The position numbers and the translations under genes are program-made. Positions 3,779 through 24,814 of a DNA stretch of 37,920 nucleotides are shown here, piece by piece (within the stretch, counting starts at the first letter, position 1; each line of letters opens with the position of its first letter). Under the pieces are notes generated by a model. That model ran no database searches, was not told the origin of the DNA, and worked only from the letters and a program-made list of their open reading frames with translations. Source of the DNA: a virus; UHGV virus genome UHGV-0126763. One strand, 5' to 3'.

Positions 3779-4021
3779 TTAACCATCAACAAACTCTTCT
3801 GGTAATTTATCAACCAGTTGATGACTTATTATCAGCCATTTGCCATCCTTCGTTTCGTATGCATATTTCTGGTCTTTTATCATCATGTGTTCGGCTACTG
3901 CCCTAACTGCCTGATCGGTGACATCTTCTCTCTTTCCTACCCACATTCCTTTTTCAGTGTTTAATGTTCCTTGAAAAATACGACCGCTTAATGGGCTTGC
4001 GCCCATAGTTTTTACTCTCAT
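3779..4021 (-). CDS. Hypothetical phage early protein
   Basis: 80-aa ORF immediately downstream of N; ATG with GAGAG RBS. Confidence 0.6.
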   Translation of the reverse strand: MRVKTMGASPLSGRIFQGTLNTEKGMWVGKREDVTDQAVRAVAEHMMIKDQKYAYETKDGKWLIISHQLVDKLPEEFVDG

Positions 4022-4031
4022 GTATCAGCTC

Positions 4032-4358
4032 TCAAATAAGTGGTTTGCTGCCTAATTTCATTTTCTGGCGACCAACACAAGTCACACCCATTTCACTGCG
4101 TGGCTTGCTGTACCATGTGCGCTGATTCTTGCGTTCAATACGTTGCAGGTTGCTTTCAATCTGTTCGTGGTATTCAGCCAGCACCGTAAGGTCTATCGGA
4201 TTCAGTGCGCTTTCTACTCGTGATTTCGGTTTGCGATTCAGCGAGAGAATAGGGCGGTTAACTGGTTTTGCGCTTACCCCAACCAACAGGGGATTTGCTG
4301 CTTTCCATTGAGCCTGTTTCTCTGCGCGACGTTCGCGGCGGCGTGTTTGTGCATCCAT
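4032..4358 (-). CDS. N: Antitermination protein N
   Basis: N-terminal arginine-rich motif MDAQTRRRERRAEKQAQWKAANPLL matches lambda N as recalled; AGGAG RBS; nutL lies immediately upstream. Confidence 0.9.
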   Translation of the reverse strand: MDAQTRRRERRAEKQAQWKAANPLLVGVSAKPVNRPILSLNRKPKSRVESALNPIDLTVLAEYHEQIESNLQRIERKNQRTWYSKPRSEMGVTCVGRQKMKLGSKPLI

Positions 4359-4556
4359 CTGGATTCTCCTGTCAGTTAGCTTTGGTGATTGGATGGCCGG
4401 CGCTGAACCCCGGCTTACTGGTTAGAGCGCCCGCACTACCAGTGACGCTGTCTTGAGGCGCAGATTGGTTACTGCTTGCCATGAGCGCTGTTTATACATT
4501 GGTCGAGCATCAGCCTGCTCATTCATCCAATCCCAAAGCCTTCTGCTTTGAATGCT

Positions 4557-4587
4557 GCCCTTCTTCAGGGCTTAATTTTTAAGAGCG
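4557..4587 (-). promoter_or_regulatory. nutL: nutL (boxA CGCTCTTA plus boxB GCCCTGAAGAAGGGC hairpin)
   Basis: Minus strand reads CGCTCTTAAAAATTAAGCCCTGAAGAAGGGC between the OL operators and N. Confidence 0.85.
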
Positions 4588-4631
4588 TCACCTTCATGGT
4601 GGTTAGTGCGTCCTGCTGATGGCTTAAAATA

Positions 4632-4712
4632 TACCTACAGGTAAAACCGTTGTCTATACCTGCAGGTAAATAAAATTGGTGTGAGAGTTTACCTGTTTGA
4701 ATTTTCAGGTAA
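4632..4712. promoter_or_regulatory. OL operator cluster (PL region)
   Basis: TACCTACAGGTA at 4632-4643, perfect palindrome TACCTGCAGGTA at 4657-4668, split half-sites TACCTG-N10-CAGGTA at 4690-4711; same motif family as the OR sites. Confidence 0.6.
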
Positions 4713-4730
4713 TTAATTTTTTGGATTGAT

Positions 4731-4754
4731 ATAAAAAAGCCCGCTTTGCGGGCT
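4731..4754 (-). terminator. Intrinsic terminator after the repressor operon
   Basis: Minus strand AGCCCGC-aaa-GCGGGCT stem-loop followed by TTTTTTAT, directly after the stop of the 4766..5062 gene. Confidence 0.7.
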
Positions 4755-4765
4755 GAAAGGAGATG

Positions 4766-5062
4766 TCAGAAGCTATTTGGATTGCTTGGCCATTGCGGCA
4801 ATTTTGATTCTACCGGGGTGTGTTTGGGTTTGAGTCCGTTTAAGTAGTCAAGACGCTCAATGGCGCATTTATACATAGCAATCTGATCTGATGACATGTC
4901 GTCATATGACATGCCTTTGAACTTCTTAATTATCGTTTCTGCCTCATGTATAAGATTCTTCTTCCTCATGAGTTCAGCTGTATGCTTAGAGCTTACAGGA
5001 GATAACTTTGCCCATATGAAGCAGATGATTACAACAGCGACTACTATGCCGGGTATAAACAT
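4766..5062 (-). CDS. Small membrane protein co-transcribed with repressor (rex-position moron)
   Basis: ORF-track frame 4766..5080 begins with TTG overlapping the cI stop; in-frame ATG at 5062 with GAGGA upstream gives MFIPGIVVAVVIICFIWAKL, a single N-terminal TM helix plus about 75-aa soluble domain. Confidence 0.6.
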   Translation of the reverse strand: MFIPGIVVAVVIICFIWAKLSPVSSKHTAELMRKKNLIHEAETIIKKFKGMSYDDMSSDQIAMYKCAIERLDYLNGLKPKHTPVESKLPQWPSNPNSF

Positions 5063-5076
5063 TTGCTGCTTTATCC

Positions 5077-5763
5077 TCAAACTTTTGGCAGATCGTCCTG
5101 GTCTACGTACCTGGTGTGTTTCACAATAGCTGAAACAAAATGCATTTTATCAACTTCTTCAACAGGAAGAGTGATTGGGCGGTGATCACTGTTTATGCTA
5201 CTAAACTGATAATCACCGTCTCTTGTTTTGTTCATGATCTTTATCATGTTGTGACCGTCTTTGGTCCTTACAAAGACTTCATCACCTGGATGTACTGGCG
5301 TATTTGGTTCAATAACAACATATTCTCCTGACTGAATCCTTGGCCACATGCTGTCACCCTTAACCTTCAGACCGTAAGCATCTTTATCGCCGCTGTAGAT
5401 GCTTAACCAACCGGATCTGAATTCAATCATATCCACTGAGCCATCAACTCCCAAAACGGCTTCACCAATTACCGGAACAAAACCCGCACGAACGTTACCC
5501 GCAAACTCAAGATGGTCCGTAGCTCCAGCTTTACCATCTGCAAGCATGTCCATCCATCCGCGTGGGAGATTAAAAGATTTTTCAATTAGTTCCATCATAT
5601 CGTCAGCAATGCGTTTTTTTCCGCTTTTTCCTTCCGGATACAGCATTCTGGAAACGTATGATGGTTCCCTTTCTATTCGACGAGCCAACTCTGAGGCCTT
5701 TCCATTACAGAATCGGTCTCTTATCTCTATCAGCCTTAGTCGTCTTTGTTCGTATTTATCCAT
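5077..5763 (-). CDS. cI: CI-like prophage repressor (HTH N-terminal domain, S24 LexA-like peptidase C-terminal domain)
   Basis: 228 aa; C-terminal GDSMWP serine motif and later Lys typical of S24 autoproteases; divergent from cro-like gene across the operator cluster; no SD before ATG, consistent with a leaderless PRM-type transcript. Confidence 0.85.
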   Translation of the reverse strand: MDKYEQRRLRLIEIRDRFCNGKASELARRIEREPSYVSRMLYPEGKSGKKRIADDMMELIEKSFNLPRGWMDMLADGKAGATDHLEFAGNVRAGFVPVIGEAVLGVDGSVDMIEFRSGWLSIYSGDKDAYGLKVKGDSMWPRIQSGEYVVIEPNTPVHPGDEVFVRTKDGHNMIKIMNKTRDGDYQFSSINSDHRPITLPVEEVDKMHFVSAIVKHTRYVDQDDLPKV

Positions 5764-5769
5764 GATTTA

Positions 5770-5797
5770 ATTCTATCTTTGATTACCTGCCGGTAAA
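5770..5797 (-). promoter_or_regulatory. Candidate PRM-like promoter for the repressor
   Basis: Minus strand TAGAAT -10 about 6 nt upstream of the cI ATG, weak TTTACC -35 overlapping the leftmost OR site; inferred by analogy to lambda PRM. Confidence 0.35.
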
Positions 5798-5835
5798 TAA
5801 CCTATGGGTATTGATTTGCTTTTTACCTACAGGTA
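5784..5835. promoter_or_regulatory. OR operator cluster (three sites)
   Basis: TACCTGCCGGTA 5784-5795, weaker AACCTATGGGTA 5799-5810, TACCTACAGGTA 5824-5835; tripartite arrangement between divergent cI and cro. Confidence 0.65.
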
Positions 5836-5839
5836 AACT
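5811..5839 (+). promoter_or_regulatory. Candidate PR promoter
   Basis: TTGATT -35 at 5811-5816, 17-nt spacer, TAAACT -10 at 5834-5839 overlapping the rightmost operator; 32 nt upstream of cro start. Confidence 0.45.
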
Positions 5840-5871
5840 CATCTTATTCAACAACGGGAAGGAGATAGCAA

Positions 5872-6102
5872 ATGGAAGAACTCCGCTTGTATCTGAACTC
5901 CCTTTCACTGGAAGAGCAGAGAGAATTTGCCACCAAGTGCGGAACTTCTATCGGCTATTTGAGGAAAGCACTTAGCCGTAATCATGAATTGGGCGCAGCA
6001 CTTTGTGTTCTGATTGAGAAGTTCAGCAATGGTGAAGTGACTCGCAAAGACCTTCATCCGGTTGATTGGGAAAGCATCTGGCCTGAATTAATGGCCGCTT
6101 AA
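5872..6102 (+). CDS. cro: Cro-like HTH regulator
   Basis: 76 aa, first gene rightward of OR, GGAG RBS 7 nt upstream. Confidence 0.65.
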   Translation: MEELRLYLNSLSLEEQREFATKCGTSIGYLRKALSRNHELGAALCVLIEKFSNGEVTRKDLHPVDWESIWPELMAA

Positions 6103-6110
6103 GTTATTAA

Positions 6111-6142
6111 CGCTCTTACACATCCCAGCCCTGAAAAAGGGC
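6111..6142 (+). promoter_or_regulatory. nutR: nutR (boxA CGCTCTTA plus boxB GCCCTGAAAAAGGGC)
   Basis: CGCTCTTA at 6111-6118 and hairpin GCCCTGAAAAAGGGC at 6128-6142, between cro and cII. Confidence 0.8.
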
Positions 6143-6218
6143 ATTACCAGAAACAAATCTCTATGGTTTTGCGTTTCTTTGCGAAGCCAACTCTATCTAA
6201 TCATTAAGGAAATTATCT

Positions 6219-6500
6219 ATGGGTACTATTGCAACTAAAAGCAAGAAAGCGGCTCGCATCGAGTCAGCCTTGCTGAACAAACTGGCACTGATGGGGCAGA
6301 AGACATTCGCTCGAGCAATGGGGGTTCCTGAATATCAGGTAAGCCGATGGAAGAATGGTTTCTTCTCGCAGGTAAGCATGATGCTGGCTGTTCTGGAATA
6401 CGGAATCGAAGACGATGAAATGGCTGAGCTGACTAAGCGGCTTGCCAATTACCTGACAAAAGAAAAAGCCCCGAAGAACGGCGAATTCTTCGAGGCCTGA
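6219..6500 (+). CDS. cII: CII-like transcriptional activator
   Basis: 93 aa; ARIESALLNK...SRWK...MLAVLE segment resembles lambda CII as recalled; AGGA RBS. Confidence 0.8.
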   Translation: MGTIATKSKKAARIESALLNKLALMGQKTFARAMGVPEYQVSRWKNGFFSQVSMMLAVLEYGIEDDEMAELTKRLANYLTKEKAPKNGEFFEA

Positions 6501-6534
6501 TGTAGAAAGACTGGATCAATCCACAGGAGTCATT

Positions 6535-6696
6535 ATGACAAAACGTCGTAAGAAATACCAGGAAAAAGAAGAGATTCGACACCCTGATTCACCTGAGGGA
6601 TTAGTGGTAGCCGCAGCAAATAACAGGGCGTTCGCAGAGCGCCTTGTTGGTGTTTACAGACTAGCCAAAGCAGGAGTGAAACATGGGCGTCGTTAA
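6535..6696 (+). CDS. Small basic hypothetical protein (53 aa), not in ORF track
   Basis: ATG at 6535 preceded by AGGAGT; hand translation [53 protein letters not shown]; stop overlaps the O-like gene start. Confidence 0.35.
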   Translation: MTKRRKKYQEKEEIRHPDSPEGLVVAAANNRAFAERLVGVYRLAKAGVKHGRR

Positions 6697-7504
6697 GTTA
6701 GCTGATTACAGGCCTCAACTGGAGGTCGTGGAGCATCGCGTGGCAGATACCGAAGATGGTTTCATGCGCGTTGCTAACGAGATTACCGACAGTCTGCTGA
6801 TGGCTGATTTAACCGTCCGGCAGTTGAAGGTGATGCTCGCTATCATGCGCAAGACATACGGATTCAATAAGCCGATGGATCGACTCACAAACACGCAGAT
6901 AGCAGCCATGACAGGTATTCATCACACTCATGTTTGCGCTGCCAAGCGCCAGCTTATTGAGCGTAAATTCCTCATTGCTGATGGCGTGAAAATCGGAGTG
7001 AACAAGGTGGTTTCGCAGTGGATTAGCCAGGACAGCTTAACATTAGCTAAAACAGCTAATAAAACATTAGCCAAGTCAGCTAATGGGTATAAGCCAAGTC
7101 AGCTAAACACAAAAGACAATATACAAAAGACAATAAATACAAATACCCCCTTACCCCCTAACGGGGGCGGCGATGGGCAGGTTAAACCTGAACGTCGCAA
7201 GGCAGAACGAATCGACTACGAATCCTTCCTGAACGCCTACAACACCGAAGTCGGTGACAGACTTCCACATGCTGTTGCGGTCAACGAGAAACGCAAACGT
7301 CGCCTGAAGAAAATCATTCCGCAACTGAAAACGCCAAACGTGGACGGTTTCAGAGCGTATGTCAGGGCGTTTGTGCATCAGGCCAAGCCGTTTTACTTCG
7401 GAGACAACGACACGGGCTGGACGGCAGATTTTGATTACCTGCTGAGGGAAGACTCGTTAACGGGAGTTCGGGAAGGGAAGTTTGCAGACAGGGGGATTGC
7501 ATGA
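6683..7504 (+). CDS. Replication initiator, O-like (P22 gene 18-like)
   Basis: 273 aa, AGGAG RBS, origin-like iterons embedded mid-gene, followed by helicase gene with ATGA overlap. Confidence 0.8.
7040..7140. repeat. Candidate replication origin: iterons plus AT-rich tract inside the O-like gene
   Basis: GCCAAGTCAGCTAA occurs twice (7070-7083, 7092-7105) with related TTAGCTAAAA/CAGCTAAT units, then A-rich tract with AAAAGACAATA twice. Confidence 0.5.
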
Positions 7505-23653: not shown

Positions 23654-24814
23654 ATGGCACAGGGCTTACCTGTATCCAACGTTGTAAACGTTGATGTGAT
23701 CATCTCGCCGAAAGCGGCTACTGGTCGTAACTTCGGCGCGCTGCTGATCCTCGGCTCTTCCACTGTCATTCCGGTGCAGGAACGCATTCGCCTTTATGCG
23801 TCCGTTGAGGACATTGGCGAGGACTTCGGAGTCGACAGCCCGGAATATGAAGCGGCGCAGGTTTTCTTCAGCCAGTCACCGAAGCCGACACAGGTTTATG
23901 TTGGTCGCTGGGCGAAGACGCTGAGTTCTTCCGAGAGTGGAGATACTGAAACCATCGTGCAAGCTGTTAATGCCTGCCTGCAATATACCAACTGGTATGG
24001 GCTGGTTGTCGCTGATGATGTTGTCGCTGGTGGCGATGTGCTTGATGCTGATGACGTGATTGAGGTCGCCAAACTTATTGAAGCGTCCAGCCTTAGCCGT
24101 ATCTTTGGTGTGACCTCTGCCGACGCCGAGATTATCAGCACGACTTCGACGACCGATGTTGCGTCGAAATTAAAGGCTGGCAAGTATGCCCGTACCTTTA
24201 TTCAGTATTCCACCAGCAGCCCTTACGCAGCGGTTTCTGCTTTCGGTCGTGCGTTTACTGTCAATTTCAACGGCAGCAATACCACCATTACCCTGAAGTT
24301 CAAACAGGAACCAAGCGTAACCTACGAAACGTTGACGGTAGGCCAGGCGGCTGCGGTGGATACGAAGAATGCGAACGTGTTCGTGTACTACGCCAACGAC
24401 ACGGCGATCCTGCAACAGGGTGTCATGGCGAACGGTGACTTCTTCGACGAGCGCCACGGGCTCGACTGGTTGCAGAACTACGTTCAGACCAACCTCTATA
24501 ACCTGCTTTACACCAGCACCACCAAAATTCCGCAGACTGATGCCGGTGTGACCCGTCTGCTTTCCAACGTTGAACAGTCCATGGATCAGTCCGTCACGAA
24601 CGGTCTGGTAGCGGCTGGCGTGTGGAATGGTGGACCTATCGGACAGCTGAATTCCGGCGATACGCTGACCAAAGGTTATTACGTGTATGCGCAACCTCTT
24701 TCAGAACAGGCGCAGGCCGACCGAGAAGCTCGCAAAGCACCGTTAATTCAGGTGGCCTGTAAGCTGGCTGGCGCAGTTCATTATGCCGATGTGCAGATCA
24801 ACGTGGTTCGCTAA
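23654..24814 (+). CDS. Putative tail sheath protein
   Basis: 386 aa, first large gene of tail module, followed by tube-like and chaperone genes; assignment by position and size. Confidence 0.5.

Follow-up and report, generated by a model that had tools for sequence, protein, structure and literature searches.

Palindromic TACC-N4-GGTA sites as predicted repressor operators of an mEp043-type lambdoid immunity region

The DNA analysed here, a stretch of 37,920 nucleotides from the virus genome UHGV-0126763 (hereafter the window), carries three related palindromes between its divergent repressor and cro-like genes, and these are almost certainly real binding sites of the prophage repressor, as judged from sequence comparison. 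The best explanation of the region as a whole, including the mechanistic steps set out below, is that the sites are the operators of an mEp043-type lambdoid immunity region, and we hold this to be very probably correct. The layout is that of an ordinary lambda-like genetic switch, common to a wide phage family. That the sites serve as repressor operators for PR, PRM and PL is a prediction with strong support from their co-conservation with one DNA-binding domain, and the operator assignment itself is strongly supported by comparative evidence, namely conservation over more than 100 independent loci. Full-text literature searches with the site sequences and with mEp043 returned no study describing these operators, and the TACC-N4-GGTA recognition sequence appears to be undescribed.

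Operators and promoters of the immunity region

The three OR sites lie within the 108-nt gap between the oppositely oriented cI and cro-like genes (Table 1), and their sequences and coordinates are exactly those given in the preliminary description. They are built on TACCNNNNGGTA (TACC-N4-GGTA), a dyad that can be lengthened by two bases on each side to TTTACC-N4-GGTAAA. A motif search of the whole 37.9-kb window returns six exact matches to TACCNNNNGGTA where 0.15 are expected, a count reached in none of 100 shuffles. Four of the six fall in the intergenic regions of the immunity region, at OR3, OR1, OL1 and OL2. The 14-mer TTACCN4GGTAA, with at most one mismatch, occurs five times in the window against 0.54 expected. 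Furthermore, a repeat search recovered the same operator copies on its own and, in OR and OL, yielded no repeated element besides the TACC-N4-GGTA sites. The idealised palindrome TACCTGCAGGTA is absent from OR and has its exact copy at OL2. OR2 by itself is weak evidence: it carries one core mismatch, and one-mismatch matches number 13 in the window against 7.3 expected. It counts as a site because it lies 25 bp from OR1, which is the spacing of the OL pair, and because it is kept there in every related locus.

Table 1 Predicted features of the immunity region in window coordinates
Feature	Position	Strand	Sequence or elements	Remarks
cI repressor gene	5077-5763	-		228 aa; N-terminal helix-turn-helix (residues 1-72) and C-terminal S24 peptidase
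cro-like gene	5872-6102	+		76 aa; YdaS-family helix-turn-helix
Predicted PRM	5797..5770	-	-35 TTTACC (5797..5792), 16-nt spacer, -10 TAGAAT (5775..5770)	9/12 consensus positions
Predicted PR	5811-5839	+	-35 TTGATT (5811-5816), 17-nt spacer, -10 TAAACT (5834-5839)	8/12 consensus positions
Predicted PL	4656..4628	-	TAGACA-17-TATATT	10/12 consensus positions; followed by lambda-type nutL and N gene
OR1	5824-5835		TACCTACAGGTA	centre 66.5 nt from cI ATG
OR2	5799-5810		AACCTATGGGTA	centre 41.5 nt from cI ATG; one half-site imperfect; adjoins PR -35
OR3	5784-5795		TACCTGCCGGTA	centre 26.5 nt from cI ATG; 15 bp from OR2
OL1	4632-4643		TACCTACAGGTA	overlaps PL spacer and first 2 nt of PL -10
OL2	4657-4668		TACCTGCAGGTA	perfect palindrome; adjoins PL -35; 25 bp from OL1
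Split site	4690-4711		TACCTG-N10-CAGGTA = TACC-N14-GGTA	centre 38 bp from OL2

The other two exact matches are located in coding sequence. TTACCGTTTGGTAA, at 118-131 (match at 119-130), lies inside the minus-strand ORF 50-493, and TACCAACTGGTA, at 23986-23997, inside ORF 23654-24814; each is isolated. Two such matches slightly exceed the 0.15 predicted by chance, and as candidate operators both were set aside as chance or unexplained. An operator-like sequence with one mismatch, TATCTATGGGTA at 6214-6225, overlaps the cII ATG (6219) and the predicted -10 (GATAAT, 6217..6212) of PRE, the cII-dependent promoter, for which a TTGC-N6-TTGC is found at 6244..6231 on the minus strand. This candidate was rejected as well: one-mismatch matches occur near chance level, and Sf101 shares the last 127 bp of the query, up to position 6220, so that the site is probably coincidental. 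A search for RNA elements by an Rfam scan of positions 4000-7000 brought up nothing that came near a gathering score.

The outer OR sites had been described as overlapping the PRM -35 and the PR -10, and both overlaps hold. OR3 covers four nucleotides of the PRM -35 hexamer TTTACC, itself an operator half-site with its flank, and extends into the spacer. Ten nucleotides of OR1 lie at the end of the PR spacer, and its remaining two open the -10 hexamer TAAACT. The promoter scan lists candidates with at least 9 of the 12 consensus positions; PR falls under this threshold and was therefore read by eye. Its predicted start lies near 5846, and relatives keep a TTGnnn adjoining OR2 and a TAnnnT beginning inside OR1. 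In E. coli K56-43, the PR -10 TAAACT is replaced by TAAAAT, nearer to consensus (aligned to 5834-5845).

The motif was also said to recur at OL, and it does so over PL, as two canonical sites accompanied by a split site and not as three. The OL pair is flanked by the lambda-type N gene with its nutL on one side and by the end of the cI operon on the other. Its geometry is identical to that of PR, OR1 and OR2: in each case O2 adjoins the -35 hexamer, and the -10 hexamer begins with the TA that closes O1. No third canonical OL site was found 15 bp beyond OL2; that side of OL2 has the split site alone. With its flanks (4688-4713) the split site reads tTTACCTG-tttgaatttt-CAGGTAAt and has its centre some 80 bp upstream from the predicted start of PL. 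Its half-sites are perfect, and 14 bp instead of 4 bp separate the cores, corresponding to one extra helical turn. The exact 14-bp core gap and 38-bp offset recur in 43 viral contigs, as well as in Pantoea, Dryocola and other loci, and the interior is semi-conserved (approximately TGAAAWTTCAANC, with TTCAA or ATCAA). The split site could represent a third OL operator with an extra turn, a site for a bending protein flanked by half-sites, or a hairpin. In E. coli K56-43 it carries GGCA instead of GGTA.

At the start of cI, the -10 hexamer TAGAAT is followed by six nucleotides (TAAATC) and then by the ATG, the A of which, at 5763, is the predicted PRM start. No Shine-Dalgarno sequence is present before this ATG. 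The sequence features behind the earlier proposal of a leaderless repressor transcript are present, with the ATG positioned where a transcript from TAGAAT would begin. The cI mRNA made from PRM probably starts at the A of the ATG, as this arrangement suggests, and cI is probably translated from such a leaderless transcript. The cro-like gene, on the other hand, has a Shine-Dalgarno sequence (AAGGAG, 5859-5864) 7 nt before its ATG. Lambda has TAGATT-TAACGT-ATG at the corresponding place, likewise without a Shine-Dalgarno. A -10-like hexamer is found 6-7 nt before the repressor ATG in relatives from Enterobacterales, Burkholderiales and Stenotrophomonas, and among homologues the N-terminus MDKYE is kept from the first codon. 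In Mannheimia phage 587AP2 and Xanthomonas phage Rb1, the repressor ATG is preceded by a leader of at least about 25 nt with an evident Shine-Dalgarno sequence, which makes the leaderless layout lineage-specific.

Conservation of the sites among prophages and viral contigs

Over positions 4522-6220, the window shares 98.4% DNA identity with coliphage mEp043 (JQ182734, NC_019706, PV340537), and the two CI proteins are 100% identical. All five operator cores are the same. The differences comprise two central bases of OL2 and a few spacer positions, while the remaining genome is mosaic. mEp043 constitutes an immunity group of its own (PMC3442831, citing Kameyama 1999). Its records carry PL as a putative PL and annotate a cII site, without operators, and one of them names cro a 'prophage antirepressor'. 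When a clear-plaque mutation was sought in the operators, mEp043 c-1 and the other mEp043 record proved identical over the 4.7 kb compared. Of 5426 complete E. coli genomes, 53 carry the mEp043-type region. In near-identical prophages of this species, operator substitutions fall solely in the inner positions (OR3 GC to AT; OR2 at position 5 or 6; OR1 A to G; OL2 GC to AT), and no core base is changed. In E. coli HH97 (aligned to 5755-5880), cI is frameshifted and the cro Shine-Dalgarno sequence is destroyed (GGGAAAATAGAT for GGGAAGGAGAT), with all operator cores intact; this immunity region looks to be decaying.

Further loci were collected from the protein side. This set consists of the Rac-like prophage of E. 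coli A19 and 11 loci from a genome scan, belonging to Escherichia, Pantoea, Atlantibacter, Dryocola, Izhakiella, Paraburkholderia xenovorans, a Hydrogenophilaceae MAG and Stenotrophomonas, with identities of 44-100% in the N-terminal domain. The A19 repressor comprises 138 aa, lacks S24 and is 79% identical to CI over its first 72 residues. Measured from the repressor ATG of these loci, the operator centres lie approximately 27, 42 and 67 nt upstream, and the spacings are 15 and 24-25 bp; in Izhakiella the OR1 position is degenerate. We compared 102 half-sites, in which the core TACC/GGTA carries 1.4-1.9 bits per position versus 0.2-0.7 bits at the inner positions. The OR2 half-site facing OR3 is imperfect in most loci (GGTT, GGCC, GGGC or GGCA) and a perfect GGTA in Izhakiella and in phage CharmingMan. 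Most of these loci carry, downstream of the repressor gene, two further sites at a spacing of 25-26 bp. A similar layout is seen in the isolated phages CharmingMan (E. coli), 587AP2 (Mannheimia) and, in degenerate form, Rb1 (Xanthomonas). The TACC-N4-GGTA-type sites of 587AP2 are spaced 25 and 16 bp apart, and the degenerate set of Rb1 includes a 15-bp pair.

The reverse approach started from DNA, using the OR2 and OR3 composite TACCN4GGTTATTTACCN4GGTA, with 19 fixed bases, as a query against IMG/VR. It matches 96 contigs, every one of which has an OR1-type site 24-25 bp upstream. The adjacent ORF, where intact, encodes a CI-type N-terminal domain with an invariant SYVSRMLY helix (92 of 92), and an OL pair at 25 or 26 bp is found in all 76 contigs with enough sequence. 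The C-terminal domains of these contig repressors form at least three S24 groups: 51 are S24 domains unlike that of the window, 33 are 933W-like as in the window, and one is another S24.

These results bear on the simplest alternative, in which the repeats bind no protein and are palindromes that arose by chance or from the make-up of promoter hexamers. The flanks of the half-sites do form parts of promoter hexamers, as TTTACC serves as the PRM -35 and OR1 leads with its GGTA into the PR -10 TAAACT, and OR2 alone stays within the chance expectation for the whole window. However, the shuffled windows never reach the observed number of matches, the cores persist in relatives with as little as 44% protein identity next to bases that are free to vary, and a query of 19 bases leads to viral contigs that all share the same neighbouring gene. 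The chance reading is effectively refuted, and we assign it a probability close to nil.

The repressor and its Cro-like partner

The C-terminal domain of CI is recognised as Peptidase_S24 (E = 1.4e-17). The N-terminal domain has no sequence match in Pfam, NCBIfam or the PDB, and its sole matches are PHROGs 5736 and 27486. Its structural model (pLDDT 87) adopts a helix-turn-helix fold, with helices at residues 23-29 and 34-40. The top structural match is the repressor of Salmonella phage SPC32H (PDB 5D50), with a TM-score of 0.81, an rmsd of 1.2-3.7 A and 25-27% identity; Cro/C1-type helix-turn-helix proteins come next, and the family profile also picks up 5D50 (E = 3.6e-4). Among 32 homologues the segment SYVSRMLYPEGK is nearly invariant, and the DNA-binding module as a whole follows the pattern MDKYE...SYVSRMLYPEGK...LPRGW. 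This one module is fused to at least four C-terminal types, namely a 933W-like S24 domain, a second S24 type unlike that of the window, other S24 types and short non-peptidase forms (approximately 136-140 aa in total). Short repressors with a CI-type N-terminal domain and no S24 occur in loci L003 and L016 and in many P00xx matches. The operator architecture remains constant across these C-terminal swaps (5077-5763 in the window; loci L003, L008-L017 and L021-L116).

Two known repressor groups were considered for a shared DNA-binding domain or specificity. The first, hinted at by a note on 933W CI in the mEp043 annotation and rejected, is that of the Stx phages 933W and H-19B. Their CI proteins have an S24 domain closely related to that of the window (approximately 49% identity overall), and the OR is tripartite in all of them, but S24 alone is shared: the N-terminal domains are not alignable with that of the window, and the operators of both phages are different, the 933W operator being a 15-bp dyad of another sequence and spacing (PMC3317979). 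The second comprises the Gifsy and SPC32H phages as carriers of the CI N-terminal domain, for which EMSA data (PMC3121763) would have been relevant had the domain been shared. A protein search of sequenced phages with a short-form homologue gave 15 matches, none of them to a Gifsy or SPC32H phage. The recognition helix of the Gifsy-type SPC32H Rep (PDB 5D50) is NLVNRW, compared to SYVSRMLY in the window, and SPC32H Rep is non-cleavable, whereas the window CI carries an S24 domain.

The divergent partner of the repressor is a homologous YdaS-like Cro in 104 of 105 operator-bearing loci. As this Cro and the CI N-terminal domain always occur together, the comparative data cannot tell which of the two proteins constrains which base. 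It could accordingly be argued that the palindromes are mainly targets of the YdaS-like Cro and that CI recognises something else in the region, the Cro-like gene being associated with the operators about as tightly as the CI N-terminal domain. Yet these sites also overlap PL, well away from cro and in the place where a maintenance repressor has to work, and neither OR nor OL offers another repeated element for CI to use. In addition, the recognition helix of CI is invariant exactly where the half-site is invariant. In known lambdoid switches the operators are common to CI and Cro, which further speaks against a division of targets. We judge that reading highly improbable and retain the sites as CI operators, on which the YdaS-like Cro presumably acts too.

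Proposed switch and its genomic setting

From sequence features and their conservation we infer binding, an affinity order, cooperativity, PRM activation, a leaderless start and SOS induction. A CI dimer would read the 12-16 bp dyad (T)TTACC-N4-GGTAA(A) through its N-terminal helix-turn-helix with SYVSRMLY. Conservation resides in the TACC/GGTA half-sites and not in the central 4 bp. CI bound at OR1 and OR2 is predicted to shut off PR, and the same arrangement at OL1 and OL2 to shut off PL. OR2, with an imperfect half-site in most members, would be intrinsically weak, and CI at OR1, 25 bp away, probably helps to fill it by cooperative binding. The centre of OR2 falls at the lambda distance from the cI ATG (41.5 nt), and CI bound there could therefore stimulate PRM, while occupation of OR3 over the PRM -35 would give negative autoregulation. 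The S24 domain implies RecA-stimulated self-cleavage.

The preliminary description held that the sites reproduce the OR3/OR2/OR1 logic of lambda with a different recognition sequence, a claim that stands in part. Like lambda, the window has divergent cI (helix-turn-helix plus S24) and cro genes, three OR dyads, and operators over PL. Lambda has its OR3, OR2 and OR1 centres 19, 42 and 66 nt away from the cI ATG, and the window has them at 26.5, 41.5 and 66.5 nt; the O1-O2 spacing is 24 bp in lambda and 25 bp here. OR1 and OR2 thus occupy lambda positions. OR3 does not, being separated from OR2 by 15 bp throughout the family instead of the 23 bp of lambda. Given this spacing and a consensus match equal to that of OR1, the lambda filling order may not apply. 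Consensus match proved a poor guide to affinity in a study of 933W (PMC3317979). Further differences concern the sites and proteins themselves. The dyad spans 12-16 bp (TACC-N4-GGTA), whereas lambda sites span 17 bp; lambda OL consists of three sites 24 and 20 bp apart, compared to two canonical sites and a split site; the CI N-terminal domain has no sequence similarity to that of lambda; and the Cro, a YdaS-family helix-turn-helix protein, is unlike lambda Cro.

These deviations leave room for a switch in which the operators are real but do not work as in lambda, with OR2 and OR3 forming a composite element that is filled by a tetramer or occupied in a mutually exclusive manner, and with PRM simply autorepressed. 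The cores of OR2 and OR3 are 3 bp apart and lie on nearly opposite faces of the helix, and their 15-bp spacing is kept in all loci whatever the C-terminal domain of the repressor. OR3 is a full consensus site and OR2 nearly always imperfect, and PRM already has 9 of 12 consensus positions unaided. Moreover, the closest solved relative of the CI N-terminal domain, the SPC32H repressor, is reportedly a tetramer that binds DNA in a non-canonical way. Against this stands the position of OR2 at 41.5 nt, close to the 42 nt from which lambda CI activates PRM. We regard such a switch as somewhat unlikely, and the lambda-like reading remains our preferred one.

A broader proposal, which we consider rather doubtful, is that the sites belong to an undescribed and widespread cassette, defined by the SYVSRMLY helix, the TACC-N4-GGTA dyad, OR2 and OR3 at 15 bp, the OL pair and, in about half of the members, the split operator, and that OR2/OR3 and the split site operate by a mechanism unlike that of lambda. 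If true, the architecture would have stayed fixed even though the oligomerisation and induction domain was swapped at least four times, involving non-cleavable short forms as well as S24 domains of two or three unrelated types. The geometry would then be set by the N-terminal domain and the DNA and not by C-terminal cooperativity. OR2/OR3 and the split site might in that case rely on opposite-face or mutually exclusive occupancy, or on binding that depends on bending or looping.

The analysis provides a testable operator map of the mEp043 immunity group, and the map extends to a large set of related prophages across Enterobacterales, Pasteurellaceae, Burkholderiales and Xanthomonadales. It can serve to annotate immunity regions, to predict which prophages are homo-immune, and to design orthogonal repressor/operator pairs. 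For the most part the findings confirm the lambda paradigm, and what goes beyond it are the 15-bp OR2-OR3 spacing, the split OL site and a DNA-binding module reused with several induction domains. These family-wide peculiarities are modest but genuine leads, and will not surprise a specialist.

Outside the operators, lambda-like similarity picks up again close to the PL start. The N protein (4032-4358), nutL (approximately 4557-4590) and nutR (approximately 6110-6135) are lambda's own, with boxA CGCTCTTA and boxB GCCCTGAAGAAGGGC and GCCCTGAAAAAGGGC. With an mEp043-type immunity region lying between lambda N/nutL and nutR, the prophage is a natural imm-hybrid. On the minus strand, an ORF of 104 (or 98) aa at 4766-5080 overlaps the cI stop codon, and an intrinsic terminator (4738-4754) marks its end. 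The ORF encodes a predicted membrane segment, has PHROG 10450 (function not assigned) as its sole match, and occupies the position of lambda rexAB. We regard it as a candidate exclusion gene expressed in the lysogen.
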